The notes: generated by a model from the sequence alone, not told the origin. A stretch of 64,000 nt of DNA from Blasia pusilla (GCA_050084515.1 CM114271.1:38440001-38504000), one strand, 5' to 3'; shown: positions 2,708 through 64,000, numbered from the stretch's first letter. Translations and numbers: made by a program.

Positions 2708-2893
2708 CTAGTTGGCGGCTCATGTCATGTGCAGGAGTGAAGGGATTAATGACATTTCACACAAAATTTATGTCAGGGGAAATATTTTCTTACTACCCGT
2801 AGGATAGGGGACATTTTCTTGCTGCCCCGATGCCACATATCAAGCAAAGAGGTGTTTGCAAATCAAGAAGGCACTCTCCAATAATAATATAGA
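2708..2893 (-). mobile_element. Non-autonomous mini-Helitron (~186 bp)
   Basis: Minus strand reads a|TCTATATTATTAT at 2893 and ends CTAG|t at 2708, i.e. an A^T insertion with no TSD. Its 5' ~65 bp recur at 7064-7127. The 3' hairpin is weak. Confidence 0.55.
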
Positions 2894-35572: not shown

Positions 35573-36611
35573 ATGATGAGCTCTCGCAAGCAGGGAGGAG
35601 GCAATGCACTCCGCGCGTTGGCGGTGTTGCTGTGCGTGATGGCCCTGGCCGAGTGCTCCATGGCGTCACTCGTGACGGTAGGGGGGGGAACCAAGGGTTG
35701 GACTCTCGGCTACAACTACAACTACTGGTCCAGCCACACCAGAGCCAGGCCTTTTGACAACATCTGTAAGTGGATCACTGCAGGCCGACCATGGAATTGG
35801 CTTCCAGCACTTCGCTTCTGTTTTCGTCAGTCCGAATTGAATCAAACCCTAAGCCAATCACTGACTAGTAGAACGGGTCCATCTCTCCTGCGGGTCCACG
35901 ACTTGCTACCGAAACTGTGACCTTCAGCTCATTTCTCCATGACCCATGTGCTACTGATCGACGTAGATCATCTATTCGCTTTGCATTCACGGATCCAAGC
36001 AGCTTACATTCTGGACTTAGGTTTTGTACATGCACACGTATCGTTCTCTTCTTCATCCTCAATGCTACTGACAGAGCCATGTTAGCTGCGAACTTGACCC
36101 AAAGTCGTCAGGATTCCAAAGGTAGATTTTAAGAATAGTGTGCAGCAGTGTATATATACATAATGCCACTTCTTCTTCCTCCTCTCTGTTACTGACAGTG
36201 CCATGCTATCTAGCCATGCTAGCTGCGCACATCGAGCGGAATGGTCAGTCAAGAATTCTGGACCTAGATTCTTAGGGATGCTTGGAGTTTTCTTACGTGT
36301 GTACACTTCACGTTCTTCGTCTCCCTCTCCCTTCTCTTCTTCGTCTTGCAAGCATTCTTGGGTTTGGTGGGACTGAGTGAGCTGGAAATCTGCCGGTGCT
36401 TGCAGTGTTCAAGTATGATCCCAGGTTACACAACGTGCTGATGGTCAGCAAGGCCGACTTCGACATGTGCCGGACCTCGAATCCGTGGGTCAAGTACACA
36501 TCCGGGAGGGATTACCTCAAGTTCACGAGGCCCGGAAACTACTACTTCATCTGTGGCATTCCCAAGCACTGCGCCGCAGGAATGAAGGTGGCTATCAATG
36601 TCAGTTGGTAA
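35573..36611 (+). CDS. Plantacyanin / basic blue copper protein (phytocyanin), 2 exons: 35573-35765 and 36406-36611
   Basis: Signal peptide; VTVGGGTKGW; a phase-1 GT-AG intron joins DNI-L-FKYD; type-1 Cu ligands H(NV), C(GIP), H(C), M(KV); disulfide cysteines; no C-terminal AGP/GPI tail. Confidence 0.95.
35589..35609 (+). promoter_or_regulatory. miR408-like target site in plantacyanin 1
   Basis: AGCAGGGAGGAGGCAATGCAC versus perfect complement GCCAGGGAAGAGGCAGTGCAT; miRNA positions 7-12 are paired. Confidence 0.8.
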
Positions 36612-41902: not shown

Positions 41903-42579
41903 TCACTTCACTTTCAGTGCAACCTTCATCCCTTGAGAGCAGTGGTTCGGAACTCCACAGATGAAGTAGTACACTCCGGGCTTCGTGAACTTGAGGCGGT
42001 CCTTCCCGGATGAGTATTTGGCCAAGGGATTAGAGGTCTTGCACGAATAGTAGTTGGCCTTGCTCACCATGAGCACGTTATGATCCCTGGCGTCATACTT
42101 GAAGACTGCATGGCACACCAAACACACACAGACACAGTACAACCGTAAGCACTCTATCAGTGGGAGCGCATATAGACAGGGCTACGACGACTGAGCTGCG
42201 GGAGATGTTCGAGAGAATTATTCATCAGTACCGTCATGCACATACAGTCAACGAGACAACTGCAGCTACATATGGTCGGCAGTGCCTGCCAATTCGTGGA
42301 AGGAACCTTCGGATCGGACGCAGCCCAATTCGCTAACGATCGACACCGTGACGAGGGTTGACGAGCGGAGTGATCGAATGACTTTGACTTACGGATGTTG
42401 TCGTTGGTCCTGATATTGGCGCGCGTGGACCAGACCTTGTAGTTGAAACCGAGAATCCAACCCTTGCCTCCTCCGACCGTCACGAGAGCTGCCAGGGTGC
42501 AGTCCGCCATCGCCATCACGCACAGCAGCAGAGCCACGCAGCGGATGGCATTGCTTCTTCCCTGGCCGCGGCTTCCCAT
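41903..42579 (-). CDS. Plantacyanin / basic blue copper protein paralogue, 2 exons: 42579-42393 and 42105-41903
   Basis: MGSRGQGRSNAIRCVALLLCVMAMADC signal peptide; VTVGGGKGW; same phase-1 intron position; HNV...FICGVPNHCSQGMKV Cu site intact. Confidence 0.95.
42546..42566 (-). promoter_or_regulatory. miR408-like target site in plantacyanin 2 (weaker)
   Basis: GCCAGGGAAGAAGCAATGCCA; mismatches at miRNA positions 1, 2, 6 and 10 of AUGCACUGCCUCUUCCCUGGC. Confidence 0.7.
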
Positions 42580-44599
42580 GGCTACCGACGTGTAGAGGAA
42601 GACGGAGAGATCGGACTCTGGAGGCGGAAAAGTGAGGAAATGTGGACGAAGGGAGTACGTAGAGAGTGAGCTGAGGATGCGATGGGATGTGTGCAGCAAG
42701 AAGGAGGTATAAGTAGTGGTGTCCGGACCATATGGGTCCAGCAGCCGCTGATTGCTTCCTCCGATCCCGCGCGGGATGGGGAAGAGTCGTGAGTGTCGTG
42801 ATGGGCGCCGGTAACAATTGGATGTTGCGTTCACGGCGCGCAGTATGCTCTCGGAGTTCGGCGTTCGACCTTCGTCGATCCATTGGTCTGACTCGAGTCT
42901 TGACTCTCGATAGTCGGATGGTGTCGGCGCGGGAACCTCACAAGCGAGTCGCAAGAGACCGGTTTTCGAAGAAGATCCATCTTTGTGGCGATCACTCACG
43001 TCGGTAGAGGACCCAGCGACTGGAGCCCTCGATTGCCAGAGATCGACCGCTTCTCCGGTACGCGCAGGTCCACGAAGGGACGTTGATGCGATGCAATGGC
43101 CACGAAAGGGTTGGCCTCATCAATTCGTGACGTTGACCGGCTTGTGCTGAGCACCCACTCGAATGTTGACATGCTTTACAATTTCATTGTGCGGCGGCTC
43201 ATGCATGGCCGCACAATCAACAACAACAATCATGCCTGGAGCTCCCTCCTTGGAGACTTGGACCTATACGTATAATTCAGCCCCAAGTTACCTCCTTGGG
43301 TTGGTAGCTCCTTGGACCCAAGATCCCTCTTTGGGCTTCGGAAGTCGGACGTGGTTCCTCAATTAGCCCTCACCCTCTACGTACAGTACCTTTCTTTTCG
43401 TTCCGCCCGGATGACAAAATAACGTGCGGCGGCGGCCCGGATCGTGACAATGTAGTCCGCGACTACCGACGGTTGTCAGCGTTATACGGGCTGCTGCCGC
43501 TGCACATGAATGCATTTTGCCACGGTATCATTAGGATAGGCATTTGCATTTATCATGACTATGGTTCTTTTCAGAAGTCGGTGGTTTCGGCCGGGAAATT
43601 TGGGGTTGCTTTCTGAAGAAGATAAGATTTTTTTTCTTTATTAAGGAATTCGTTTTGAATTTTCAGTAATTTCGTGTGTATTACTAGCATATACGGCACT
43701 TACAAGTTCTTCATGTCTTTTTAACCTCTCCACTTGTTTTAAATACATGTTTGATAATTATTTTCTCTCCCCATCCGTCTCAAAGGTAGTTGGGCTGGTC
43801 TTGTGTTTACCCTACGATCACTCTCTCTAGTCTCTACGAGAGGGTCTATCTATTCCTCTTGGTAGAGAGAGGGATCATTTTGATTATATATCTCCCTTTT
43901 CCATAGAAGAGAGTGGGGTTCTTTCATCTCCATAATTTTCTCCATCATCCATTCAAGTCTTATAGTTATCTTGAGTTTGGATAACTCTTATAGTTTCTAA
44001 GTTTTGTAGAATGATGGATCAAAAAGTGACATATGAACAAGTCATGTAAGAACTATGATGGGATTACTACTCTTGCTAGAGGGAGTAATCCCTCCAACTT
44101 TGTACTTTCCCTCTCTCTCCCTCCCCATACTCTTGATATAATGAAGGGTTCTTTCACCAGCCACCCTCCCTTTCCTCGCCCCATCGACATCATTATCATT
44201 CTCTATCCTCTTTGTAATTCTATTCTTTGAGAGATTAGAAATGATTCATCACTTCCCTCTCTGTCAATCCCTTATCATTAACAATACTCCCCTCCCCTCA
44301 CCTATCTTATATGCCGATCGAAGTCGATCCCTCCATAGAGGATATATAAGAATTGAGTTGGGGGCTTAAAGATAGATTATCTCCCTCTACAAGGATACTT
44401 TCTATATCTCTGTAGAGGGATAGAGAAATTTGATTGATATCCCTTCATTTCCAAAAGAATGGAGATGGCAAAAGGAAAGTGGATCCATTCCTCCTCTCCA
44501 ACCATTTGGTGTTCCCCTATTTCCCCTTACCTAACCTATTGAAAATTTCATCCTTATCTCTACTTACCCTTCCCATCGAAAATATAGATTTTTTAGATT

Positions 44600-45480
44600 C
44601 AAGATGAATTACATTTCTTCCATTAGGGATAAAACTTCAATATGATAGTTCCTCAAAGTTTTGTGCAATAAGCCCATCTCTCCAGAAACCATAAAATCAT
44701 AAGTTGGTTTCTTATACGGCTATTAGACCTTTTTAAGAGATAACACATGTGAGATTTTTCTATTGAATAATTTTCTTCCATTGGGGATAAAACTTCATAA
44801 TATAATTTCTTCCATTAATTTCTAATCGTCCTCCAATTTCTTCAAATTAGACCAATCCCTCCCAAAATCATAAACTCATAGTCATGATACAATGATCATA
44901 CCCTTTTAAAAAATAATGTCTCGTAAGATTCTTCACATAACTTTCTTGTTCCTAGAAGACTCTAAGTTAGTGGTGAAATTAGCTTCATGTAAGTCTACTG
45001 TTTCTCAAAGTTTGATGTAAAATTACTATCCCTCCCAAAACCATAAATTCAAAAGATGATATGAGATAAGAGGACTATACCTTCTTAACCAATAGTTTCT
45101 TTATGATTTTTAAAAATTGAATATCATAATCCTCTAAGTGTTGAAATTTTTGGTAAGCTTAGTTATATTTAAAATAATATTCCTCAAATTTTCATACAAT
45201 CCTCCCCTTTATCACCAAAAAAATCACTTGGTGATTTACTCTAGGGCGATCATACCTATAAAAAATCCTATATGATTTTTTGATTGAATAATTTCCTTCC
45301 ATTGGGGATGAAACTTGATAGTATGATTACTTACATTGATGAATATTATTTCTAAAAGTTTCATGCAATATGTCCATCCCTCCAAAAACCTCAAATTTTT
45401 AAGGCAATTTGTGATATGATGGCGATAAGTCCATTTTGCATAAACTTCTCCTCCATGACTTTTCACTTCAAACATTTTCC
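44600..45480. repeat. Degenerate ~160-175-bp tandem array
   Basis: ttccatt(a/g)gggat.aaactt at ~44618, 44777 and 45297; ccctcc.aaaa.c.t.aa at ~44857, 45029 and 45377. Confidence 0.7.
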
Positions 45481-45539
45481 TCCCTTGGGTTTCCGACATA
45501 GTAGTAGTATTATTTGAATGCAATTCTAGTATCTCTCAA

Positions 45540-48000
45540 AGTCTCTTGGCCACGTTTATGATTTCTTGAGCTCGCTCCCAAACCTACGTCTCTTTCTTGC
45601 AATTATGAGCATGGTGTATATGTTTATTGTTTCAAAGCCATATTGGAAAAAAATGTAGTGCTAGAAAATTGAAGGAAATACCCTTCATAGTGTTTGAAGC
45701 CAAAGTGTGATCAGGTTTATAGCTACAAAGCATATTCATATCTACACGGTTGATTTGTAATTTAATGTGTTAAATCATTCACATAAAGACATTCTAGGAT
45801 TGAAAGGACACATGGATGTTAGATATGTGTGGATGGTAACCAATGCATGTTGGTTAGCAATATGTATTCCCTTGATAGCCAAGATCTTGTCGCAAAATTC
45901 TCATATGCTTTAACTTTGGTTTTAGAGAAAAGCTATTTTGTTATCATCCCAAGTGGTGATGTCATCAAGAAATATACGCATCTACCCATCCAATGATTTG
46001 TCAATATAATCTTTGAACAACGTGAAAATACCCTCGGCACAAATTATAACTACAAGTTTAATACCATTGGTGAATCAAGCCAAGAATTCTTATAGGTCCT
46101 TCTTGGCAATGTATTTCTAATTACTTAGTGTTGAGTTGAAGTAATTAACGTATCGATTTCTTTGGTCTTCCATTATGTCTAGCTTATTTATAGGATTTTT
46201 TAAATGATTTTTTCTTTTGCAAGGGAAGTAGATATTGATGTGGGTAATTTCCACCAAAACCAATGAAGTTTTTCTTCATACTGAACGAGAAATTTCTTAA
46301 GTTGCAATGAAGTAATTATGAATCAAGTGATAAGCTTGACTACTATTAGTAACAAACCACGATATTTTTTAGAAGAGAAACGTTCCACTATTTGTGGGTA
46401 AGAATCTATAAATCTATTGTAGTCCTCATCATGGTTGTCGCAATTAGATTTTTAAAGGACTACACCACAATGACCACATTTACATATTATCTTCTTCCTA
46501 TAAAACAATCACATGGAAATAGTAATAATCACATTCAATACTCATTAAGTCTATAAGAAGGGAATCCCGCCTCTAGCAAGTATTTCTATTTAAGTAAAAT
46601 CTTGCCAAAGGAATACAATTATTGTCATACATCAAAGATCCTCTCAAATTAGAACTCTATGTTTAACTAGTTTGTGTGAGAAGGTAAGTTCATTTGGGAT
46701 CCTTTCTTAGTGAGCCCTCCACATCTTATTTCTCACTATATTGTCTGTCTCTTTGATACAAACTATATTTCATAGTCTATTTTACGAGATTCTTTTGGAT
46801 CCTTCTTAGCCTTCAATTCTAGTGCCTCTTCTATACAAATGTCACGTGATAGTCTTCTATTAAAGATCCCTCTAGATCATGCTTGGCCCCTAATTCCTAT
46901 CTTTCTTCTACGTTACGCATACCCGATGGCCAGCAATACTCAACCCTTGAGATCCTTATAAATTTCACCATTACCAAAGTCTCTTTAATATATGGCACAG
47001 TTTGTGGTCATGGTTCTCTAGAATATATATATATCCCTCTAGATCTTTCCTAACCATCATCCTCAATGTTTTTTTTACGTGGATCTTATTTGATGATTAA
47101 CTTTAATATATATCCTCTAAATTCCTTACCTCCACTACATTTGATGTCCCTTCCATAGAGGATCCGGTCTCTTGGTTCTAAACCTTGATCATATTACTTT
47201 ATCAACATTCATTCTTGTATACTTTGTATACAATGTTTTTTATAACCTTCACGATTTCTTTGTCCATATCCTATATATTTTCTCATTGTTGTAACCTCTA
47301 CTTTAGCTTAAGTCATATCCTTCCACTTTTCATTCATATGTTAGCTTCATTTTAGTAGAATATAAAATTGCTTATAGGATTCTCTCCTCATATTTTGTCT
47401 CAAATTCCTTCCTATCTTGTTTGCACTTAATGATTCTCCCACATAAAAGTTCTCACGTTAGTTGGCCTCTTTTGACACTTAGTAAATATTTAGTGAGCTT
47501 CTTGGTCCCAATAATTTTGACGTAGAAGATGGTTTCTAAGCTTCAAGACGAGCTATATTGCTTATTTCTTTAGGAGATGTGGGACTCTCCTCCATATTTG
47601 CAACAAAACCATAAACTATTTTTGGGAGTTGGCCTTTGGTTGCTTATATCATGATTCCAAGGATATTCACCCATATATTTTGATGGATGATGTGGCCTAC
47701 TTTTAGGAGGGAAATCTATTATTCCAATAAAAGTTGACATAATTTAGCCTTTCCATCTATATCGTATACATTTCTTGTGTGAATACATGCGCTATGACTT
47801 AGCTTGCTACAAATCTTCTTATTGCTCCATTTCATCTTTTATGAAGCATGTTCTTGACAAGATTACCATGATGCCTTGGAATACCTCATCTTTATCTTTT
47901 GGGTGGACCTAATTGTGTATGTGGGGAGCCGAGTGAAGCAAAATATATCCATATTCTTTGATGTGCGTATAATGGAGAGCAAACCAAGAGAGATGATGTG
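45540..48000 (-). pseudogene. Very decayed L1-like LINE ORF2 (tentative)
   Basis: Only traces: a zf-RVT-like ET...HNCKKET*VWE near 45570-45640 and a GIR-G-like trace near 46885. No long ORF. Confidence 0.25.
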
Positions 48001-48254
48001 ATTACAAAGGAATAAACCTCAATGCCTCATGCTACATTTTACATTTTTGGTAAGTATATGTCCCATTATGAAGATATACTTGATAAAAAAATACACCTAG
48101 TTATGACTCGAGGTGATTTTCTTCTATTGGGTGATGTAGTGATTTTCAATCATATACGATTTGATCGGTATCTTGAGCCATAAATATATAGCATTTAGTG
48201 GCCAATGAAACATTAAGAATGAAGGAATTAAGTTAATATGTAGTAAGAGATTCT

Positions 48255-48900
48255 TGTCACGACCCTCAAAGCTGAGCGTGCGACGATGTGGAACATTAGA
48301 ACTCGAGTAGGCTCAGACTCGCATGGAAGCACGTTTGAGACTCTAGAATGAGACATGAGTTGCAAGCGAGATGCGAGCCTTGCAGGGCGTCTCAAATGAT
48401 GATGGTCGTGACCTATTACAACAAGATCAAATATTAAGTAGTTCTTGAGAGAAGCTCAAGTGCAAGTCCCACTTGATGGATGGAGAGGTTGTCTTCAAGA
48501 TGTGGACATCAAGCCAAGTCGAGGGGGATTTATTATGGATATGAATCTTGAATCTTGATACGTGACTCAGATATTGGATCATGGCTAGAGAATCATCCAC
48601 TTGGCAACTTGGACCACCAGGTGCGCTAACACTAGTTTAGGTTCTTGGACTATTAAGGAAGTGTGTCCCAAATCTTGAAGGAATTTCTTGTGTTTGGGAA
48701 TGAAGGGTTAGGTTGGTATCTGAACGCGCTTAGGTCTGTTGAGATTGAAGGATACCTTGAGTCCAAGATTTCGAAGAGGCAAGACTAGTTGACCCAAATA
48801 GCAAATAATGTGAGTATGTTTGGATGGAGATCAATAAGGAGAGTGTGACCTACTGAATGTACGCTTCTAAAATACATGAGGTCAAATTCCAAGAGGAATG
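48255..48900 (+). mobile_element. LTR-retrotransposon fragments
   Basis: Starts TGTCACGACCC (a common plant gypsy LTR start); PPT-like GAGGGGGATT at 48521; locally higher GC. Lies between two copies of a ~75-bp direct repeat (48123-48197 and 48919-48994). Confidence 0.4.
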
Positions 48901-50499
48901 GGCGTACTAAAAATTTTGTCTATTGGGTGATGTAGTGATTTCCAATCATACACGTTTAAATTGGTATCTTGAGCTATAAGTAAATAACATTTAGCCCCCA
49001 AGAAATTCACCCAACCTATCAAAATGACACAACATCCTCCATGTTCATCTTGTGACTGTTTGATTTTGATATGGTTCATTGGTTTTGCCCAATTTTCTTT
49101 GTGTTAGCTATCTGCCAAGAGTGCCCTTCATGTGTAGAGTCTATTGCAATAGCCTTCCTTCTTGTGTAGAGCCTACTTTGTGGCTGCTCTTTTATTTTTG
49201 CTCTTTGTTACTTGCTTCATACAAAGTTGCTCATCTTTGGTGATGTCCAATTATTGTACATGATTATGATTACTGCCTTGCAATTTCCTTGTGGGATCAT
49301 AGAATTTCTTTGTTCAAAGTTTTGTGTACGATGCGAGATCTAACAAGTTAGTTCAAGTTTTTTTAGATCAAATTCTTGGTTGATTTGTGCTCTTCCTTCT
49401 CTTCTCATTTCATTCCATGTATTTGAAGCTCTTTGCTTTATCCTACGAATTATTTTCAGAACTTTGTATATTAATTTCTCTCCAAATGGTGTTACTATAT
49501 CTAATTCTCTCAATAAACCATGACATTATTAAAATCATTCTATCATACAAACATTCATGATCAATCTAGAATATCCAGCGTAAACCTCTATATTTTTTAC
49601 TTACTTTCCTTCTGAATCTCTATATTCTTGCACTTTCACATTAGATCTTGAACCTCCATCAACAATATTCACTTCACTACATACATTTCTCAAGGTTTCC
49701 CTATTTTTCTTATTCCAACTATATTGTACAACTTACAATATCTATCCCCAATTCAATTTGTATTATCTTGGCCGCATATTAGTTATTAATAGTGTTTATC
49801 AATGGTATTATTATATGCATAAGCATTGATGTTGATACATTGATCCAAAGTAGTTGGCGACAACTCATCCTTTTGTCCATTCATATGCAAGCAACCATTA
49901 GACTTCATGTCATATTTGTTTCAAGTGTTGTATTGTATTGATCTTTGATATCATTTTCTTATTTTCCATTTGGCATGTTATTGTTTTCTTTTTGTATTTT
50001 GGATCTTTTTCCTCTCTTAATAAGTTTTTAATTTTATTTTTTCCCTATGTTTATTTGCCTGATGAATTGGATTTCTATATTAGCCTCAAAAGATCTCCCT
50101 TTCTTTTATAAAACAAACCTCATAAGAGGACACATAAAATCAACAACATCCCAAGAGGAGAAGGATATTAGGTTGCATCAAAGAAATGCCAAAATAATCT
50201 AATTCTTTGTGAGAAGCTCTTAAAATCGATAAAGACCTTTTATAATCAATTGATTGAAATGGGGTATAATTTTAATTATTCTTTGGATAATATATCTCTC
50301 TCCTCCATATAGGCCAGGTGATCCATCAAGATAATTGTATCTCCTTAGATAAACTTAAAATGATGATGGGAAAAATACCCCAACTCCCCAAAAACATTTG
50401 TAATGTATTCGTGATTGTGGAGGAAATCCCCTTACCTCCAAAAGAAATAAGAAACACGATGTTCTCCAAGAAGCTAGGACTTCTTAGAGCAAGCAAATA

Positions 50500-51430
50500 G
50501 AAGTTTTTTTTAGAAGAAAGTGGAATTCATATGATGACTTGAATCAGGAAAAGGAAATATTGATTTAAAAAAAAAATCATGGAAAGTCAAGATCTAAGTC
50601 GTTCATGTAATATCTTGTGGTATTTTTATTATATTCACAAAGTTTGAGTCATATCCAACAACCACTTAAAAACTAGAGTTCAACCCTACCTTAAAAAATG
50701 GACCCTAGAGTGAATCGATTATTACTTGTTTTTCTTCTCTTCCAAGTTGCTTCCTTGCCCCTTCAATCCCTTAAAGTGCTCCAAAATTTATGAAACGTTG
50801 TGATAATATATGGGAGGCATACATGGAATCAATAGGAGGATTTCTATAAGAAAATGAAAATCATATGTTGTATTTAAAGTGAAAAAAGGAATATATGAAT
50901 TTTTTTCTTAAAAATTATATAGGAAAATCAAGATTTAAGGTATTCATAAACTTCCTTATACTATGTTTTGAACATCCTCAAAATTTTAGTCCCAACCATC
51001 GGCCACTTGAAAACTAAGGTTCAATCCTATATGAAAAAAATGGAGTTTGGAGTGAATTGCTTCCTTGCCACTTCAACCTCCCAAAAAGTGATTATAAATT
51101 CATAAAACTTTGTGACAACATGTGTGGAGACACGTGGAGTCTTAGGAGGATCTCTACAAGAAAGTGGAATTCATATGTTGGATTCAAAATGCAATAAAGG
51201 AAAGATTGAACTTTCACTTTTATTTTGAAAAGAATTTTGGAAATTAAGATCTAAATCTTTCATAAAATGTCTTATGTTGTTTTTCTTACGTCCACAAAGT
51301 ATCATCCCATTAGACGAGACTTAAAAAATCTGTTTTAATCCTAAGTGGAAAAGTGGAGTGTGGAGTGAATCGGTCATATACGTCTTCCCCTTCTTCACCA
51401 AGTTGCTTGCTTGCCCCTCCAACCTCTCCA
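50500..51430. repeat. Three degenerate ~310-340-bp tandem units
   Basis: gagtgaat anchors at ~50708, 51051 and 51363; tcatatg at ~50527, 50861 and 51171. Confidence 0.75.
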
Positions 51431-51553
51431 AAAGTAATATCTTTTGCTAACACTACCTACGACCCTTGAGCTCGTATTGTGGCAGTAGAAGGAATTCAGA
51501 ATTATTCCTCCGAGTCTAGTGTACCATAAAGGGATTCTCCACCACAATCTTTG

Positions 51554-51720
51554 ATGTTCGATTCTCAACATCTACTTCTCTTAGTACCATTAATTTGATT
51601 GACCTTCTTATATGAGAAGAATCCTAGATTGATGGTTCCGACTTAGACGTCAAAGGAGTCATAATAATATGACATAGGTGGTTTGTGGAGTAGCGTTACT
51701 AGGATTATCTATCCCTATTT
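51554..51720. repeat. ~165-bp dispersed direct repeat, copy 1 (copy 2 at 57251-57418)
   Basis: attctcaacatc.acttctct...ctagattgatggttcc.acttaga.gtc...ggagtcata...ttactaggattatcta.ccctat at both places. Confidence 0.92.
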
Positions 51721-52479
51721 TGAAAACCCTAGCTTCTCGACTAGTCAAATAGCCGAGAGCCGCAAGGGCAGCGTATTCTCGTATTTCAAGTTATCTCCAT
51801 GTTTAGGTTCCATCAAAGCTCTTTTGTGAGCGTACGGACGGAGTAGGCCACTTTGTATCTCAAAGATATGTAAAATATTTCACTGATTTCATCACATTTT
51901 ATTTTTTCACATTTGAATGTTGAAAGAGTGGACTTGGTAAATGAGCCTGATGATAATGAGGTACTTATACCTTTTGTTCAAAAATTTAAACCTATCAATA
52001 ATGTCATGAATAGTTCATAATTCTCCTCCAATCATGAAACAATTACAATAGGAAATCTTTGCCAATCCACCCAACTTAGAACTCTTGAGCCACCCAATTA
52101 CCGCTTACATCCAAGTCCATCGGATCCAACCATAGACCTAGAGGAGTGGTGTGATTCGTGATGTTAGTTAAACAGATCAGTAAATAATTGTTGCAAACTC
52201 GTTTTGTAAAGAGTATTGTAAGAATGTAATTTTTTAGACATTCCTTTTTGAACTATTCTCGATAATAAAGCAATATTTTACATTGAAGCTTAAATCGAAA
52301 AGTACCATTTTGAGGAGATAATTCAAAGATTTTGTTGCACTTTTAGTTTCCAAAATATTTTTTAGGGAAGTTATCATCACTTTCCAAAATACCAAGAGAG
52401 AGAAAGTTTGAGATGAAGATATAATTTGTGGAAAAAAGATGAAGAAGATTATAAATGGACACACCCTCTTTCCTTCCAA

Positions 52480-55080
52480 GGTTTTATCACGTGGGTCCAA
52501 AATCCACTTATCCACCTTCCATTTCATTGAAATCTTGCAAGAAGCTTATATACACTTGGATGATGAAGTGGCCCAAATTCAGGATCAAGATCACAAACTC
52601 GAACAAGGTGAATAATAGATAGATATCTTTCCTTCAAAGGAATAATCGTGTTGGTAAAAAAACACTTATCTATCTCTTCTCTTTTGGTCATAAATCAAAT
52701 TTCATTGAAATTTTACAAGAAGCTTAGTTACACTTGGATGATCAAGTGTCATAAATTTTAGGTCAATATTACATACTTCAATAAGATGAAATAGAAGGTT
52801 TAATTTCGTGGGTCCAAAAACCACTTATCCAATTTTTGGTATTTGTTCACAACTCCATTTTCACTAAAATTTGGTGAGAAGCAAACATACACTTGAGGGA
52901 CCAAGTGTCCCAAAATTCAAATCAAGATCATATATTTGAACAAGATAAAAATGGATAGACCCTTTTTCATTAAAAGGTTAATTAAATCGTGCGGGTCAAA
53001 AAACAATTATCTATGTATGGCCTTCGAGTCAAAATTCCATCTCTATTGAAAGTTTTCAAGAAGCTTAGATATACTTATGTGACCAAGTTTCTCAAATTTC
53101 AGATCAAGATCATCACCTATTTGAAAAATATGAAAAGTGGATAGACCCTTTTTTCATTAGATTGTTAAATTGCAAAGGTCGAAAAACACTTATCTACTTT
53201 TGGGCTTCTGGTCAGTACTTCATGAAGTGTGAAAATTTTCAGATGAATATCATATAATTGATTAAGAAAAAACATGGATAGACGTTCATTTCTTATAATA
53301 TTTAATTCACACGATTTAAAAACAGTTGTCCATTTATTGGGTTTTGGTAAATGGAATTATGACTTCATTTTCATGGATAAGTGACTTTGCATGACATGAA
53401 GTTTTGATTAAAAAATAAGGTGGCGGGAATTTCACATGATTTTTGACTTATAAGAACTCAATGAGAAATGGACACACCCTCCAATGCTAAAAGGTTCAAT
53501 CATTTAGGTTCCAAAAAAATGTATATCTTTTTGGGCTTTTGGTCATAATTCCATTTTTATCAAAACTTTGCATGACACCTACATACACTTAAAGGATCAA
53601 AGTGTCCAAAAATTCAGATCAAGATGAATTCATTGACCAAGATGGAAAAAAGAAAGACCTTTTGCTAGTGTCCCAAATATTAGGTCAAGATGAAATTCTT
53701 GAACAAGACGGAAAATTGAAAGACCCTCTTTTAATTTGCTAGAAGATATAATTGCACGGGTCCAAAATCCATCTAAATATTTTTGGGCTTTTGGCCCCAA
53801 CTCCATTTTCCTTGAAATTTTGCAAGAATTCTATATGCACCTTAAGCATCCAGTGTCCCAAATTTTATGTCAACATGAAATCCTTGAACTAGATGGCCAC
53901 AATCCTATTTTCCTTGAAACTTTGCAAGACGTCTAGCTATTCCTTAAGCATCAAGTCTCCAAAATTTCATTGCAAGAGGAATTCCTTGAACAAGATGGAA
54001 AATGGAAAGAATTGCTTTCGCTAGAGGATCTAATCGCGCGAGTCTAAGAACCACTTAAATATATTTGGGTTTTTGGTCAGGACTCTTTTTTCCGTGAAAA
54101 TTTCCAAGAATCCTAAATATACCTTGAGGATCAATTATACCAAAATTCAGGTCAAGATGAAATCCTTAAATAAGTTGAAAAATGGAAAGATCTTCTTTAG
54201 CTAGAAGGTATAATCAAGCCGGTTAAAAAACCATCAAAATATTTTTGGGTTTTTTTTCAAAACTCTTTGTTTTTAAAATTTTTTAAGAATCTTTCATACA
54301 ATGTGAGGATCAAGTGTCCCAAATTTCACGTCAAGATGAAATCCTTGAAAAAGATGAAAAATAGAAAGACCTTCTTTTGCAAGAAGGTCGGATCGCAGGG
54401 GTCCAAAAACCACCTGCATATTTTTGGGCTTTTGGACATATTTCTTATTTCCGTGAGAATTTGTAGGAAGTCTACATACAACTTAAGCATCAAGTGTCCA
54501 AAATTTCAGGTCAAGATGAAATCTTTGAACAAGATGGAAAATAGAAAGACTATATTTTGTTAGAAGGTTTAATTGCACGGGTCTATTAACCACCTATATA
54601 TTTTTGGGCTTTTGGTCACAATTCTATATTCCTTAAAACTTTGCAATTATCTTTGATATCCAATAAGTATCAAGCGTCCCAACTTTTGGTTTAGGATAAA
54701 ATACTTGGAGAAGATGGAAATAAAAATACCCTCTTTTGCTGAGAAGGTTTAATTGCGCAAGTTAAAAAACCACATATCTATTTTTGGGCTTTTGGTCATA
54801 ACTCCATATTTCTTGAAACTTTGAAGATAGCTTTCATACAAATTAAGGGAAAAGTATTCCAAATTTCAAATTAGGATGAAATACTTAGTAGACGATAGAA
54901 AATAGAAGGATCTTATTTTGCTAGAAGATTTAATAATAATGGTCAAAAAACCACTATAAATTTTTTGGGATTTTAGTTACAACTCCATTTTTCAATGGAA
55001 ATTTACAAGTAGGTTAGATACATTTAGATTATCAAGTGGTTCAAATTTCACATATATATTACATAGTTACGTATGATGAA
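52480..55080. repeat. 180-bp satellite-like tandem array (~14 units, some truncated)
   Basis: caagatgaaatc-type anchors at 53973, 54153, 54332, 54512, 54692 and 54872 (spacing 179-180); more diverged units lie to the left. Confidence 0.92.
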
Positions 55081-55979
55081 TAATGGACACACTTGTCTAT
55101 TTATTATTTTTTGGGAAGAAATAACTTAAGACAATACGAGAGTGTGTCCATACAAGAAATCTTCCTCAAATTTTTGAAAAATAAATCAATTTGTAATGTT
55201 AAAATATTTTTGTTATTGGGATGTGGTTCAGAAAATATTTACATATTTTAAAAACAATCTAAAATTGAGGGGCATAATTAATTCTTACCCTATTTTTATG
55301 ATCTCTTTTCCTTTTTTTTCTTAACCTTTTGAGAATTCCTTTATTTAAAATTTCATATTTTCCATTAACTTTTAGTACTTTTCAAAGCTCTATTGTAGGC
55401 GCATACTTAATTTCTAACTCATGTTTATTATATTCTAACCTTATCAATTTCTTAATAAATTTTTAATCTTTCATGTCTAAAATATTGAAGAACAATTTTT
55501 TTTTCAAGTTTTCTTTAGTTAGAAGTCATATTATTAATCATCCCTATCAATATTGATTCACTAAATGTTTTTATTATTTTATGATATTGTTTTAGATAAA
55601 TTAATATTGACATGTAATTTGAACTAAGTATGCATTATGTAAGCTCCGAAATTAATCATTTTATTTCATAATATTTTCGGACATTTTAAGTATGAAAACC
55701 TTCCCCTCGTTCTACTTTTCAATTTAGTATAGGCCCATAAGGTAAATTTTAAAATAATACTTATATAAAATAATAAGTTTTTAAATAATAAATAATATAT
55801 CTTTATGAAATATAAATAAATAATATTCTTAATATGAAAGCATATTTAAGCTCTACTAGATACAATTCTAAATTTTTTTAATCAAGCAATCCTTTTCCTC
55901 ATTGTACTTTCCATTTTACCCAAGGATAATCCTAGAGAAAACTTAGGGACGTTTTATGAACTCACTTCATGGATAATTT

Positions 55980-58135
55980 TTTTTTTCTATATTTTTCTTG
56001 TGTTCGTTGTGTTTGAAACATCTTCCAATCTCTCTCAAAAAATCCAATGAGTTCCTCTTGCATTCGACGAGGCTAATGGTTTGTTTATGGATACCCCCTT
56101 CCATCCTTTGAGGAACATTTTGCCATAAGAAAGATGACAAATCAATTCGAGGCTCCTCAATTCATGATCATCCACCGATGGATTTTATGGATCTTCTAGA
56201 CAAGTTATCAAGTTGTGTTGAGGGCATCCTAAACTTCTAGTGGATGTTCATGAAGAAGAAGAAACAAAGAAGAAGTTTTCCGCCTCTCGATTTGGAGGCC
56301 TAGGGCAATTTTGTGAATAAGTTCTCCCTGAATATACATATCATTGAAGTGGATGAGCATCTATGTGCATTTCAGGTTTATAATTAGATTAGGGACTACG
56401 ATGTGCCAAACTGAAAGTGAGGTTGTCTTGCTCTTGGGATTTTTTGCGATACAAAGCTAGTGCATTACTATCGGGCGCGCGAGAGGATATGCCAAAACGG
56501 TGATACAACCTTCATGATGAAGGTTGTCTACAAGTTGGACACCAATGTGATAGTACTATGGCCTTTTGAAGACAATATGGATGCCAATAAGAGACTTTAC
56601 ATGTGCCTTTCACATAGCAACCTTCTACGGCAATGCAGTTAGAACAAGTCATGCACTTCAACTAGTTGTATGGCATGAGGATCCCTCCTTCAGCTATGGC
56701 GATTGCCTTCATGCAATTAGGCATATCTTACTCTTGTATGCTCGGATTGAGAGGTGTTGGTGCCAACATCATTGAAGCATAGTTGGCGGCGTTTGGATCC
56801 ATTACATTATCCCATGCTGCACGTGGAGCATGTGGCCACAACTACTTGATAGGTTAAAATAAGATCATATCAATCTTCTTCACAAGATGACCCTCATGTA
56901 GAGTTGTCTCAAGTGTGAGTTCTCGCACGTTTCTCCTAACTCTCCATCGAAGCTCTTCATTCATTTCTTGTTGTTATCTTGGCATGATGGATTCATATGC
57001 CCTCCTCCATTGCTCCATATGGTCTGCCATTACTGCTCTTTCTCTTCTATGTAGCTTATCTCTAGCAATTGACTCATTCACGATCCTCTCCATCTCTCTT
57101 TTTAGTCTCTTGTGCTCCTTAGACAAATATTGGTGCTTTCCCTTCAAAATGTTGAATTCGGCTTCCAAATCAAAAGTGCGTTAATTGGGCATTCTTCATT
57201 GAACTCTCCAAGTATGGTAGTTGAAAAATAATCTTGTTGTTGTCCAAAGTATGTTGGATTCTCAACATCCACTTCTCTCAACACCATTAATCTGATCGGC
57301 CCCCTTATATGAGGAGAAGTCTAGATTGATGGTTCCCACTTAGATGTCGGAGGAGTCATAGTAATATGACGTAGGTGGTTTATGGAGTAGGGTTACTAGG
57401 ATTATCTAACCCTATATTGCATCAGGATGGGAGGTACCCTAATGCGTCGCAGATATCTGCGGGCAAAGCCCTTGGTATGCCAAGACGACACGGGGGTCCG
57501 GGTTTAAGTTTTCTTCGTTCCTATAAATATAAACAAAGAAAAATAGATTCCTTGCTCTCCTCCATCTGGCGGAGAACATGATGGTTGATGTTGATGTCTT
57601 GGGTGTATGCCCATACTTGTAAAGTTTTTCAGAGTATAAAGTCTTAGTTATTTTTACTACACTAGTGGGTTATTTCATCTTATGTTCTTGATCTCTTATC
57701 TCTTTGTGAAGACCGGTCCTCCACATCAATGTAATAAACGTCCATGTCCTTCATCAACTCCACGACTTTGAGCTTGACAAATACCTTGGTCACTAACTTC
57801 CTCTTCTTTGGCAATATGTCATCATGATTTGCAAGGTCATTGAGTAAGGCCCAATCCTTCTACCATTCATGTTCTCCCACTTTCCTTGCAAAATCACCAA
57901 TTTTACGATCCGCCTTCTTGAGCCCCGACTTCTTGAACTCTCTTAAGAATATCAGGATCAACGATGCTATTCAAGTGTGCCTTCAATTTATCGTCGGTGA
58001 TAATTTGTGAGACCGTCTTCTTGTTCATCTTTGCCGCCGTTGGCTGACTCAGTACATCGTGGGGTTCTTCCCTCTTCCTTCAAACTCTGTGTCATGAGGA
58101 ATACGGTCTTCATGAGGCGGAAACTCCATCTTCTA
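55980..58135 (-). pseudogene. Decayed gene with a coiled-coil segment and a RING-like zinc finger
   Basis: 56974-57168 is a charged helical ORF; 56655-56521 reads CMTCSNCIAVEGCYVKGTCKVSYWHPYCLQKAIVLSHWCPTCRQP. Further coding-like frames with stops occur at 57600-58130 and 55980-56200. Confidence 0.6.
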
Positions 58136-58426
58136 TTTGTATTATAGCAAAATCCAAAAAGAAAAGGTCACTACAAAAATATTTCAATAGTAGTGACACG
58201 ATGACACATAATATATCCATGCATCATACATCCGTGATCATTTACAATCATTGAGAGTCACACTCACATTTTGCAATCATGTCTTATATTCATTGTGAAA
58301 AGTTTAAAATCCTCAAATGGATTTATAGTCATACTATCGTCGTAACAAAAATCCCATCACCATACATTCAATGAGTATATTATATGCATGGTCTTAATCC
58401 CAAATCTTTATTTTCTACACCTAATG

Positions 58427-59230
58427 CTAGTAAGTTCTTGCTCGTGCGATGCACCAGGAGACATGATTGGGAATGAAAAGACTCACATATGGAAGATAAT
58501 AAAATGAAATTAATGCACACACGTTGAATAAAGTTTAATCTTAAAAAGTATGACAAAAAATAAGAAAGATAGATTTTTTTCTAAAATAAATCTAACTTGG
58601 CTCAAGAGAAATTTTCATATATTTTATTTTATTAATTATGGAAAAAATAATTTATCGCTTTTCCAATCCTCGTCCTTCAATAAGTAAAATAAAGTCATTT
58701 ATTTTGATGAATATTTTTCTCAAAAGAGGGATTAAAAATTTCTCCCCATCTAACTTGAAAATTAAAAATAATATATAAAAAATATGTCTTCCATTATTTT
58801 GAAGAATAATTCTTGTCCCATTAGTGTCCTATTATCCTTTTCATTTTTTCCCAAAAGGAAAATTAAAATTAAAATTTAAAATTTAACTTAATTTTTATCA
58901 TAATTTTTTGGCATGAAACTTGAAAAACTATTTTTAAATTTCCAAATGAGGAAAGATAATAAGACTTAAAGAGATTTCATGGGAAAGATAATTGAATTTT
59001 AATTTGAATTAATAAATTAATTATTCATAATTAAAAATAGATAAATAAAAACCTAATTACTAAGATCTTACCCATTCTTGCTTTCTCCTTAGTATAGGGT
59101 AAAATTAAAAGAGAAAACGTCCTGCACCGGCTTCAAAAAAATATCATGTGTCATTCGTTCATTAGTCTTCATAATGAGCTAACACGCTTAATAGTATGAT
59201 TTTTGCATTTTCTCTTATATATGTAATAAT
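58427..59230 (-). mobile_element. Probable non-autonomous Helitron (3' end visible, 5' end not resolved)
   Basis: CTAG at 58427 followed by gctcGTGC-gat-GCAC, the same hairpin family as at 6925, then ~750 bp of very AT-rich DNA. Confidence 0.45.
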
Positions 59231-59249
59231 CTATTCTAGGCTTTTGCAA

Positions 59250-60080
59250 TCATAGGGTAGGGGTTCACAACTTATGCCCATGCACTTTTGAATCTTTTCC
59301 AAATCAGTCCATCTAACATTCGAGTAAGCGTCCTCGATAACAAGGTTGTATATCATTTAGCTCAAATGTTTTTCACAATCATTCCTATTGCAAAGATTTC
59401 TGTGGCTATGCTAAAAGGAAGATTCTTACGCTCTAGTGTCAACTCCGGTGCAACCCAACATGCTTTTTTTTGTTCATGGGGACACCATCTTTAGGGTGAG
59501 ACTAAGCACTCATCATCCGATAAAGCATTTCCCCAATCTCCAATCCTCATGTATGGCTCAAAGTTGGATCCAAAATGGATGAAAATTTTCCTAGCATGAA
59601 GGTTGGTAAGAAAAACTCGAAGCCCACGCTTGTGGACAATCTCCATGGTAACAAGCAAGGCAAATACAAGCTAGATAACATTTGATCCCATTATGAGACA
59701 TCTGATATTGTGCAACTCTCCTAAAGTCACCCCTCCGTTCTTCAAGGTATGGCATGTTTGCATGTATTATTCAAGGTGCCCACCATTCCAGCATGGATAG
59801 ATGGCACGCAATGGATCCTCAATCGACCTTCCTACCATAGGAACCATTCCTCAACGTAAAATAGTAGCAAACATCTCCTCAGACATCATTGATTATCTTG
59901 AATATAATTGAGATGTTTCCAAAAACATCTTCATGCAATAGCAAATGTCTTCACTAAAGCCAAGGGTTTGGTTTATTTTACAACTTGAGCCTAAAGTATC
60001 TTGAGGATCAACTCCTAAAACTACATGCTTATTAAAAATCCACATATATCCATGTGGAACTACCAATACCTTCCCCACTG
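59250..60080 (-). pseudogene. Protein-kinase-fold pseudogene, intronless, a single frame with in-frame stops
   Basis: In subdomain order: VLGVDPQDTLGSSCKI, YCMK, EEMF, IYPCWNGGHL, ALLVTMEIVH...FLTNLHARKIFIHF, IGDWG, WVAPEL, FSIATEIFAIGMI. Confidence 0.8.
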
Positions 60081-62329
60081 AATTGTTACGTCCCCTAAAA
60101 AGATGTTTCTTAAGTATTTCTTAACTCTGCACAAAATCTTTCTAGTAGAGTTCGTCCCTACAAGGATGGGCCTCTCCTTCTTCCATGTCTTGAGCTTAAC
60201 ATATGCTCTCTCCAAATCAATGCCTTATTGAGCACAAAATGCACTTAACGTCTTGGCCTCTTTGGCATCGAATTCCTAGTTCCAAGCCTTTGAAACTCAC
60301 ATAGTCAATCTTTTTTTCAATTCCAAGGTATAGTCATGGAAACCATCCATACCCTTCAAAATGTAGGATCATCTCTTCTCCAATGTAAGCTGGAAAAACC
60401 AGTCTAGCCATGCCTCTCTTACAACCATGTTGAACTCATTTCTAGTATTGACTCTTTACGAGCCCACGCATGGCCTGCACTGGTCCACGACTCTACATAG
60501 GGCATGCATAAGGCTCCTATCGTCCGCATGGCTTGCATCTACCGTGGGGCCGATCCAAGCCATGCGTGAGCCCAATGCACGCCTTTGTGGGCCTTTGTAG
60601 TCTATAAAATTGGTTGCAAGAATGGGTGGTGGATCATTGGACTAAGGTGCGGGTTGGCCGAGCCTCGATCTCAATTGTGAGCGGTAGGAATCTAGGCATG
60701 CATGGACATGTCCTTGTGCAACCTTCCAATTCACATATTTTGTATACTTATTCCTTCTTCTTCTCATTTCCCAACTTACTTACCCTCGCATTCTTGTCCA
60801 TTATCATCTTATTCATTTCCCTTATCTTCCCATTTTAACCCTTCTCCTTCTAAATCTATATTTAAGATTCATTATATACCTTGTAAAGAATATGTTCCTA
60901 CTAGGATCAAAATAAGTTAGGGATATTGTCAATCTAAGTACGCGGCTTCATACCCTAACCCCATGCACCCTTACGTTACGATTCTTGCCTCAATGACTTG
61001 AACATGGTAGAGCCATATTGATCTCCTTTGCTCTTTTCATCCCAATCTCCTTAGGTAGATAGGGATGGAAAGAGCTAAGACGAGACATGGTCTTAGATTT
61101 TACAAATGGTTTTCTATCGCTCTTTATATATCTTATCAACCAACAAACATTGCTTTTCCCTGTGGAAAGGTTCATGTATGATCCTCTAGATATGAATGTT
61201 TGGTATTTCCTATTATTCTTTCCTTAATATTTTTTAGCCCTCCTTCCGATGGAAGTTCCAATGGATTATCACAAAAATTTGTTGCATACTCAAAACATCA
61301 TGTTAGGAGACCCAAAGAATCTTAAAAATGGGCAATAAGCAACCATTCGTTCCATCTAGTGCTCCAATCACGAGAGGACTTCAATACAACAACGCCTTTG
61401 ACGTGTCTTAGTTTTGGGGAAAGTTGGTAGATTTTTATATAAAGCTCAATCTCTAAGATCTCTTCCGTTGTGGTTTCAAGTACAAACATAATGGCATTCT
61501 TAGAAGCGTTTCATCCTTCTTCAAGTGGTGACACTCTGTCTTTTCTTTTAGACTGCACAACAAACCATAACTTGGAGGTTTTCATGAGTGCATTTCCTCA
61601 CACTCCTTGCTTCTCACTATTATTAGTCTATAGATTATTAAGCATAGTTTTTTAGCATCTCTAAAATTTCCATATCCCAAAAAATATTGTAAGTGAATTT
61701 ATCTCTCTTTTTAAGGTATACGCAAATACTAGATACATCATCTGGTGTATTCGATGTGTAAGGTGCAAGGTGCTTGTTATTTATTGACCATAGATAAGTC
61801 TCCCTTTTATATAGCCTTTTGGCTATTAGAGAGGGATTACACCGCTTGGTTAATCGACCGCTTTTCTTGCAATTTATTCTAACTTCAACACCTACTTATT
61901 TCAATATTCATTTGAAGTAGCTATCCTTGGTAGATGTGAGACAATGGTTCCTAGGATATACTCCATTCTTGATATCCATCCACATTTGGTTGCAATTCAA
62001 GTGGAAGTAGGTAACACATTCAATTTATTTTCTTGTGTTACTATATTTAAAGAGTTATGCTCTACAAGAGTGTAATAAGCGATGATTGTTCTTTTTTTTG
62101 CTCTTTTTTTGCCTATGATATACCATTTATCTATTCTTGGCATGAAATTACTGCTTTCGGAAAATAGAATTTTCTACAATCAACATACATTAGAAGAAAA
62201 GTATGGTTTTTTGACTCAACAACAAATTACTTGTGAAAAAATGACCCAAATTTCAATTGGTTGGATTAATTTCATCTTCTAACTTACCAAACTAATACCA
62301 TCGAGTTGGATGATTTCATGGAGGAGTTT

Positions 62330-64000
62330 GATAGTTGGTGCGATGCATAGAGGATGCAGAACCAGCAGAGATTCAACCCCTATATGGCGTGGAAGGGACT
62401 TTTTCAGCATCTAGAGGGCCCTTCCATGGATGATTACCACGAGTTTTGGATTCTCCATGAGGTAGAGATGGAGGCATGGAGACTATTTTGGTCTCCAAGA
62501 TATGTGTCCCTCACAGGGCATGCGATGCATGATGTGGCGGCTGCAGTAGCACCCACTAACCCCACAGAGGAGACACTTGGAGGAGTTGTTGACTTGAGTC
62601 TTATGAGTGTGACCAGCCGAGTACCACCTGCGTTCAACCCATTGGTTGAACGTTCAACCTAACAGTTGAGAGAGTTTTTGAGAGGTCTATGCATGGCTCT
62701 GATGGTTGATCACAATGACTCATGGTGTGACAGAGGCGCAAGCGGTTCAGTTCTGGTATGCGATACTAGACCGCGAGTTGCATAAGACAGTGTGAGATGC
62801 AACTCTCTTACATGTTGGTTCGCCTACTCTCAAGTTTTTATTTTTGTTGGCGGAGTGCATTGAGCTCAACATACTTGAGAGAGTTTTGATGACAGGCATG
62901 TCATCTTCCAGGGAGACCACACAAGTGACAGTTTCTCCATGAGTGCCGCAACGCACTACTCAAGATAGAGTCATGGGACCGAGGGCTACGGGAGGATACC
63001 AAGAGCCACGACCACGACCAGTTCAGTCATACGCTGGGCAGCAAGGCTAAGGTATTTCTTGTTGGACGTGTAGAGGATCACATCGTCTGCGAGATTGTAG
63101 ATAGCAGAGTGGAGTGCAGGCAACACCATCAGCTGTATATGAGGCGGCCCAGGGGAGGCCACCCTTACCTCAGTGTAATCATTGGCAGAGATATGGGCAC
63201 TCACGTGAGAGATGTTTCGAGCTCCACCCTGAGCTATGCCTAGAGGGAGGTCGAGGACCTGGAGGTGGCAGAGGACAAGGTGCAGGTGGTCAAGGACGTG
63301 GTGAAGGCAAGATCCCACCACTAGCCAAAGCGAGTGCAACATTTGCATCAGAGGCAGCTTTGGCGAGGATTGCTCAGTTGGAGCAATGCATTCATGCTAT
63401 GACGGCACAACAGGCATCTACGTTAGGTGTAGGGGGCACGTTGACTTCCGGATCTGCTCGGGCCTAGGCAATGGCGGGAGATCTAGGAGGTATGGGATTT
63501 TTGTGCAACATCGCACAAGTGGATGCAGTGGTTACGAGAGGCGCGGTGAGAGCTTTTGAGCCACGAGGATCCGATGTGGAGTTGGATCCCAGAGGGGAGA
63601 GGCTTGCAGGCTGGCTAGACTTCCCCAGTCTTTCACATTGTCAGAGGCTCTTCGGACCCCAGCGATGGTCCCTAGACGGCCTTTGAGGAATGTTGTTATC
63701 GTAGATGCCGATGCAGTTAGAGGAGGGGGTGAGGTGACTACGTCTACTAGGCCTATGGAACATTCAACAGGGCCTATTACTAGCATGTTATGAGAGATGG
63801 CGACGGCTTTGTGTAGCGTCTCACTATTTACGGGTAGAGATTTTTTGACATATGGAGGTCGACCAGTTGAGGTTTTTTGGTTGGTGGCGATGCTCTGTGA
63901 GAGCGATGAGTTTAGTTCTTCTAGTGTTGAGACGCGCACAGGAGATGTGGCAGAGGTACCCTTGGAGCAGGTTCTCAGGATGAGAGCCATAGAGAGTTGG
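62330..64000 (+). pseudogene. Decayed LTR-retrotransposon gag region, running off the window end
   Basis: Zinc-knuckle-like QCNHWQRYGHSRERCFELHPE at ~63171-63233 followed by a GRG-rich stretch; gag-like VQFWYAILDREL...LAECIELN upstream; GC-rich with many stops. Confidence 0.6.

Follow-up and report, generated by a model that had tools for sequence, protein, structure and literature searches.

The window analysed here is a stretch of 64,000 nucleotides of the Blasia pusilla genome (GCA_050084515.1, CM114271.1:38440001-38504000), in which an initial annotation had read three decayed minus-strand coding remnants, a kinase, a coiled-coil/RING protein and a PHD-like trace, as possible cargo of a large mobile element. 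We give about an even chance to the reading that a moderately repeated element left a single old copy, decayed through methylation, from 55.6 to 61.4 kb, with a DNA-transposon accessory kinase as its clearest gene. Mobile-element cargo is a plausible origin for this relic, with partial support from the membership of the kinase in a divergent family, the transposon context of its relatives and the repeat status of the region. The features of the region, with read depths explained below, are the following.

55641-56400: downstream portion of the repeat, with depths of about 9-51x at the individually listed positions
56401-57180, minus strand: charged, helical region resembling a coiled coil and, after it, a RING-H2-like Cys/His cluster, with six in-frame stops, in the same frame as the kinase
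57650-59200: spacer that separates the kinase from the coiled coil, AT-rich (GC 0.31) and with no coding signal; depth bins 35.5-36.3x
59365-60066, minus strand: remnant of a kinase domain, dead and without introns, that belongs to the WNGG / H.DLH..N..HF / GDWG family, in a frame readable over about 59200-60099
60100-61363: stretch upstream of the kinase, with no recognisable coding; depth bins 20-28x
61644-62300, minus strand: right-hand part of the region read as PHD-like, with no coding evidence; depth 4.9x

The kinase remnant proposed by the initial annotation was confirmed. The kinase domain can be followed from about 60099 down to 59200 in a single minus-strand frame (codon starts at 62799-3k), without frameshifts but with 10 in-frame stops in 300 codons. 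An exhaustive search of 1.84 billion representative proteins with its translation found eight proteins at the cut-off of E ≤ 1e-3, the best being P0001 (E = 1.2e-15, 27% identity), and Pfam calls Pkinase in all eight. The 600-residue query aligned to these relatives only from about residue 337 onward. In the reverse direction, tblastn of P0026 against the window gave E = 1.4e-19 across 60066-59365. A hidden Markov model (HMM) of the family, built from 18 sequences and 467 positions long, had its sole window match at 59985-59365 (HMM positions 188-402; independent E-value 3.4e-30).

The family is characterized by WNGG after β-5, by H.DLH..N and then ..HF in the catalytic loop, and by G-D-W-G in place of DFG. 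Aligned with the family, the window kinase has CWNGGH, IFIHFG and IGDWG at the corresponding places. By its search scores, the HMM match and these motifs, it is a genuine member of the divergent WNGG/GDWG kinase family. Since the alignment shows these oddities across the family, features that seemed decayed are partly family traits. The reading of DWG as a product of decay was rejected, DWG being such a trait, and the reading of HFG as the catalytic HRD motif was also rejected, as the family alignment puts the catalytic loop at LTNLH. In the window copy, the catalytic Asp is replaced by Asn and the Mg-binding Asn by Lys. With its stops and the loss of the catalytic Asp, this copy is dead.

Pfam returned no match for the window kinase translation at E ≤ 0.5-1, though all its relatives from the exhaustive search pass as Pkinase. 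Searched against the PDB with phmmer, the kinase frame matched RAF kinases only (E = 0.011-0.3), and the three minus-strand frames over 55.6-62.4 kb gave nothing besides these. The N-terminal helical region of the family (about 160-250 residues) was not recovered, HMM positions 1-187 being unmatched upstream of the window kinase; this region may have decayed past recognition.

The source of the best match, P0001, gives it as a hypothetical protein from Riccia fluitans, a liverwort, and the other seven relatives come from short contigs. The Riccia proteins are P0001 and P0026-28: R. fluitans has paralogs that are 87% alike, lie on three chromosome-sized contigs and have truncated gene models, and R. 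sorocarpa has one kinase paralog, in which an internal deletion affects the kinase core. In all, 33 loci with kinase matches were collected, 22 from metagenome or whole-genome shotgun (WGS) contigs and 11 from IMG/VR. When the six frames of the window were compared with these loci by tblastn, only the kinase matched. In the ESM Atlas, the relative P0007 fell among generic kinase clusters only.

Two of the contigs place a kinase of this family with transposon-type genes. The public WGS/metagenome contig L012 has 13 identical inverted terminal bases (143-155 and 7726-7714), subterminal AAACG motifs and arrays of 16-bp palindromic units at 234-339 and 7529-7589. Its interior encodes a 507-residue kinase open reading frame (ORF), a 276-residue ORF and a hAT transposase with DUF659 and Dimer_Tnp_hAT domains, so that positions 143-7726 are apparently a complete hAT transposon of about 7.6 kb. 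The 276-residue ORF has no similarity to the coiled-coil/RING region of the window. On contig L013, one strand of 491-5518 encodes a kinase (565 residues), a DUF6729 protein (326 residues) and a 657-residue ORF whose nearest Atlas clusters are DUF6729 (0.96, 0.90) and a Mutator-like element (MULE) transposase (0.89). This may be a MULE-like element carrying a kinase gene; no terminal inverted repeats (TIRs) were found at the contig ends.

The loci L016-L033 contain at least six distinct decayed kinase paralogs, 70-82% alike, in AT-rich eukaryotic DNA (GC 0.31-0.37) from related metagenomes. In L016 the kinase unit (957-2496 and 10522-10831) is interrupted or extended by 8 kb in which MADF-like and DUF7869 ORFs lie, and L023 appears to derive from this segment by deletion. 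A search for TIRs and long terminal repeats (LTRs) around the decayed kinase units of L016-L029 was negative. Taken together, the relatives support the view that WNGG/GDWG kinases behave as cargo or accessory genes of cut-and-paste DNA transposons in other eukaryotes. The initial proposal of mobile-element cargo is upheld to this extent: relatives of the kinase occur inside a hAT element, beside a DUF6729/MULE-like ORF and as dispersed decayed copies, but no carrier was found in the window.

Copy number was estimated from public WGS reads with the same species label, about 1,966 million letters of which were compared with 42301-62300 at 80% likeness. The single-copy baseline was 0.54x, the mean of seven bins over 42301-46969 with both mate orientations summed. 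Against this, the bins over 55641-61643 had depths of 18.3, 75.3, 358, 36.3, 35.5, 34.6, 27.8, 21.9 and 20.5x, and the bin at 61644-62300 had 4.9x. Individually listed positions over 55.6-61 kb ranged over 9-57x (kinase 17-57x, spacer 13-24x). The 358x bin contains a fragment of a separate high-copy element at 57251-57546, described below. The 75x bin is probably inflated by a short high-copy piece, because its four listed positions are at 12-24x; a RING copy number of about 140 was rejected for this mismatch between the bin mean and its positions.

The depths relative to the baseline therefore mark 55.6-61 kb as a repeat with tens of copies, most of them less than 90% identical, and the multi-copy status left as a check by the initial annotation was borne out, with bin means of 18-36x apart from the two high bins. 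Kinase, AT-rich spacer and RING region all show much the same degree of repetition, in the order of 20-100 genome equivalents. Such similar depth is compatible with one unit of at least 4-6 kb containing all three. At 61364 there is a loose end (152 reads, agreement 0.93), which marks a breakpoint of the window copy relative to other copies.

Of 7,698 aligned reads, 5,497 were less than 90% alike and only 13 were at least 99% alike, which indicates that the repeat family is old and that the sequenced individual is unlike the assembly. The commonest indels of other copies in the kinase region preserve the frame (at 59617 one of 6 nt, in 21 of 43 reads; at 60311 one of 3 nt, in 12 of 17) and hence hint that the reading frame was under coding constraint while the family spread. 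The observed/expected CpG ratio is 0.39 in the kinase and 0.51 in the coiled-coil/RING region, compared with 1.05-1.15 in the host genes. The decay is of the methylation/silencing type, by C-to-T changes. Together with the in-frame stops, the CpG ratios agree with the initial description of coding remnants decayed unlike the host genes. RNA depth over the cassette, as we call the kinase and RING-like traces with their spacer, is 0.5-1.9x on the kinase-sense strand, for which any copy may be the source, against about 80-100x on a phytocyanin gene of the window.

Within the downstream part of the repeat, a 45-bp island at 56200-56245 has 25-50 RNA reads per run with uniform foreign flanks, two fixed A>G differences and loose ends on both sides. 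It is a short piece common to a transcript made elsewhere.

The second trace is less clear than the kinase. A stop-free Cys/His cluster of the form CX2C...C...H..C...CX2C lies at 56530-56655 on the minus strand. It has seven of the eight RING-H2 ligands, with spacing off by one, and the strict eight-ligand RING-H2 (C3H2C3) pattern does not occur in the window. A relaxed seven-ligand pattern, written post hoc, occurs once in the window against 0.065 times per block-shuffle; with the added demand that no stop be present, the pattern, fitted after viewing the sequence, was found in 0 of 200 shuffles. In the PDB, the finger matched Arkadia (E = 0.045-0.15) and RNF4 (E = 0.06-1), although ribosomal eS26 zinc ribbons score alike by chance. 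The Arkadia/RNF4-type matches are C-terminal RING-H2 ligases aligned over the whole finger. Pfam found no RING at E ≤ 1 in the coiled-coil/RING translation, its only line being HALZ at E = 0.15, and apart from this line no match was found in any of the six frames of the cassette. A word-based protein search with the same translation found no match of near length. A profile search with P0001 and window 56401-60099 over lengths of 143-2158 residues returned only Riccia kinases and no RING-fused form.

The evidence that the coiled-coil/RING trace is real is thus suggestive only; the RING remnant of the initial annotation has seven ligands and the Arkadia match but lacks a Pfam RING and the regular spacing. 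It is possible, though on the doubtful side, that the kinase alone is real and that decayed DNA has produced the coiled-coil/RING and PHD patterns by chance; there would then be no cassette. The missing ligand, the lack of Pfam RING or PHD matches, PDB values of 0.045 or worse mixed with the eS26 chance matches, and the lack of a RING near any kinase relative would all be explained in this way. Chance would account less well for the stop-free cluster and its absence from the shuffles (with the caveat of a post hoc pattern), for best matches that are C-terminal RING-H2 ligases across the whole finger, and for a RING region repeated at about the depth of the kinase.

The PHD-like trace did not hold. 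Neither Pfam nor the PDB recognized a PHD or other domain in the three minus-strand frames of 60.1-62.4 kb, and the extension of these frames down to 55.6 kb gave no PHD match either. On the plus strand, Pfam found no match over 57.2-62.6 kb.

Three repeated features lie within or to the left of the cassette.

51554-51874, plus strand: second truncated fragment of the high-copy element, in the same orientation as the first; depth up to about 1,080
52521-55080: tandem arrays of 180-bp units, with a spacing of about 320-340 bp in the left part
57251-57546, plus strand: truncated piece of another element, dispersed and of very high copy number, with a terminus at about 57252 that starts TGTTGG

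The two plus-strand fragments explain the repeat that had been assigned to the RING gene region. Positions 57251-57419 and 51554-51722 share 169 bp at 86% identity with unrelated flanks, and this piece lies upstream of the coiled coil. The repeat reported at 51554-51720 therefore exists, but as a fragment of a separate high-copy element: the 169-bp duplicate is an insertion or a neighbour, not RING coding sequence. Depth in the right-hand fragment reaches about 1,160-1,250 at 57337 and 57391 against the 0.54x baseline. The left flanks of the reads vary (agreement 0.46 at 57252), which identifies the position at about 57252 as a true element terminus. The other fragment has a loose end at 51874 (551 reads, agreement 0.94). 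Read joints include 57546 to 51723 as well as fold-back and skip joints, some genomic copies being fold-backs, and these joints reveal both fragments to be truncated variants of a longer, very abundant element. RNA reads from this element come from the plus strand.

The tandem arrays are of low abundance (2-22x), and depth falls to 2.1x at 54974-55640, between the arrays and the cassette. The 180-bp and 320-340-bp periods of the initial annotation were found at 52.5-55.1 kb; a very AT-rich gap of about 0.5-1.3 kb separates the arrays from the coding traces. With the fall in depth to about 2x and no terminal inverted or direct repeats found, the reading of the arrays as subterminal repeats of the cassette element is not supported.

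Searches for element ends were negative. Over 44-64 kb, inverted repeats 40 nt or longer are absent. Comparison of 44-56.5 kb with 60.5-64 kb gave only chance-level inverted matches of 11-15 nt, a weak test with the element ends undefined. When 55-62.8 kb was compared with the whole window, only the 169-bp piece was found, and no LTR pair. Pfam detected no reverse transcriptase (RT), integrase or gag in the cassette. The hAT transposase of L012, the DUF6729 protein and 657-residue ORF of L013, and the DUF7869 protein of L016 had no tblastn match in the window at E ≤ 1. Among the window ORFs, the only cut-and-paste transposase traces called by Pfam are DDE_Tnp_4 fragments more than 40 kb from the cassette. 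The initial remark that neither a transposase nor a viral hallmark gene accompanies the cassette was borne out by Pfam and, for the transposases, also by tblastn.

Another carrier would be a non-autonomous LTR element of the large retrotransposon derivative (LARD) kind, a Helitron or a Pack-MULE-type element, with kinase and RING as captured, host-derived passengers. The window is rich in Ty3/gypsy, second RT, Helitron_like_N and DDE_Tnp_4 fragments, the traces share one orientation, a feature of gene capture by Helitrons or Pack-MULEs, and tandem arrays are nearby. Yet no ordinary host-type kinase is close to the remnant, as the only hits at the exhaustive-search cut-off all belong to the same odd family, and searches for ends recovered neither an LTR pair nor the termini of a Helitron or the TIRs of a MULE. 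We regard such a capture as quite unlikely.

Giant viruses encode kinases and RING proteins, and their relics are known in bryophytes. The cassette would then be a relic of an endogenous giant virus (Nucleocytoviricota), with kinase and RING as its surviving traces, as the initial annotation had allowed for in naming an endogenous viral element. This gene content, and a liverwort as the source of the nearest named relative of the kinase, would fit. The 11 IMG/VR loci, however, are weak generic kinase matches (23-43% identity over short segments), and none of them has the family signature VY.G..D[WF]G. Pfam found no viral family, including capsid, polymerase and packaging ATPase, among the 207 window ORFs or in the cassette frames, and relatives of the kinase adjoin transposases. 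A viral origin is therefore very improbable, and this part of the initial proposal is unsupported.

Several points weigh against an origin from a DNA transposon. Neither the cassette nor its surroundings yielded a transposase, a TIR, a target-site duplication (TSD) or an LTR pair. The hAT element that carries a kinase is a single contig, and its 8-bp flanks mismatch, so that a clean TSD is not demonstrated. No RING occurs in any kinase relative examined. Beside the relatives there are transposable element (TE) genes of three kinds (hAT, DUF6729 and DUF7869), and the kinases could therefore simply sit in TE-rich DNA. The depth baseline amounts to about 17 reads, and the sequenced individual diverges from the assembly. 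Finally, the L016-L033 paralogs share only 1-2.3 kb around the kinase, which retrocopies would fit equally well.

Retrocopy amplification is the main rival, although we consider it unlikely. By this account the copies are processed pseudogenes: an intronless kinase mRNA, of a host or transposon gene, would have been recopied by the machinery of long interspersed nuclear elements (LINEs), and the RING-like trace and the spacer would be unrelated. The kinase domain in one frame without introns or frameshifts, the short shared segments of the paralogs just mentioned, and the short, dispersed Riccia gene models are in line with this. A repeated stretch of at least 4-6 kb at similar depth, however, exceeds the mRNA of a protein of 450-560 residues. 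No poly-A tract was noticed in the translations, although no search was aimed at one. In addition, L012 has DNA-transposon ends around a family member.

On the DNA-transposon reading, the likeliest course of events is the following. A DNA transposon, or a deletion derivative lacking the transposase, would have carried the kinase and probably a second, coiled-coil/RING-like ORF, and would have been amplified to tens of copies. These copies would then have been silenced and have decayed through C-to-T changes, and other elements would later have inserted into the decayed copies. Movement of the window copy by a DNA transposon and the inclusion of the RING ORF in the same unit as the kinase are both presumed here. 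The kinase might have acted, for example, on host or transposon proteins.

A broader possibility, which we hold only tentatively and think rather unlikely, is that WNGG/GDWG kinases form an undescribed class of transposon-borne accessory genes. They would occur across several superfamilies (hAT, DUF6729/MULE-like) in distant eukaryotes including land plants. The window element would also have carried a RING ligase gene, and the two genes would have been a module acting on host signalling or silencing proteins.

The setting of the cassette is rich in other elements. A Pfam scan of the window ORFs of at least 70 residues (n = 207) identified PIF/Harbinger-type DDE_Tnp_4 fragments, a Ty3/gypsy run of gag, protease, RT and RNase H, a second RT fragment, a Helitron_like_N fragment, a leucine-rich repeat piece and two phytocyanin (Cu_bind_like) genes. 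The latter are opposed and lie about 5 kb apart in GC-rich DNA.

36381-36608, plus strand: phytocyanin-type (Cu_bind_like) piece
41906-42181, minus strand: phytocyanin-type (Cu_bind_like) piece

The minus-strand phytocyanin gene is the one with an RNA depth of about 80-100x, measured at 42301-42967. To the right of the cassette, a GC-rich ORF at 63105-63464 on the plus strand has a knuckle-like Cys-X2-Cys...His...Cys motif followed by Gly/Arg-rich repeats. It is reminiscent of gag, and it had no Pfam match at E ≤ 0.01.

Enzymes other than transposases that are carried by transposons reveal how mobile DNA manipulates its host. A recurrent kinase cargo, possibly paired with a ubiquitin ligase, would, if true, add a signalling enzyme to the list of transposon cargo. 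The family HMM would then be a means of tracing such elements through the genomes of plants, liverworts and other eukaryotes. In terms of annotation, the finding accounts for a kinase-like pseudogene family that is missed by Pfam. Were the copies plain retrocopies, the finding would be an ordinary one. Our searches of the literature on DUF6729, DUF7869 and transposon-borne kinases found no paper, the phrase searches being narrow.

As a protein, the kinase is closest among solved structures to RAF/TKL-type kinases; the alignment with these covers the C-lobe between the catalytic loop and subdomain IX. The similarity is distant (E only 0.011). The family has H.DLH..N for HRDLK..N, DWG for DFG and the additional WNGG, and the window copy is without the catalytic Asp. 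The finger resembles those of Arkadia/RNF111, RNF4 and RLIM in the order of its ligands and in being a C-terminal finger preceded by a helical region; it differs in the missing ligand, the spacing off by one, the lack of a Pfam match and borderline E-values.

Among mobile elements, capture of genes by Pack-MULEs and Helitrons is known in plants. The cassette is like these captures in its co-oriented, gene-like pieces within a repeated, silenced element. Here, by contrast, there is a whole intronless domain of a rare family rather than exon-intron fragments of ordinary host genes. The hAT elements of the Ac/Ds type are represented through the relative L012, with its short TIRs, AAACG-type motifs, short subterminal arrays and a transposase with DUF659 and hAT-dimerisation domains. 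The window has neither a trace of a hAT transposase nor TIRs, and L012 has no clean 8-bp TSD.

The closest comparison is with DNA transposons that carry accessory genes. Plant MULE and CACTA elements carry ULP1-protease genes. TET/JBP dioxygenase genes are reported as accessory genes in fungal DNA transposons (PMC12730594). The likeness lies in a host-like enzyme gene found in or beside more than one superfamily (hAT in L012, DUF6729/MULE-like in L013), in multiple and often decayed copies. The differences are that the carrier was not identified in the window and that the enzyme is a protein kinase. While accessory enzymes in DNA transposons are known, a kinase in this role appears to be a novel variation.

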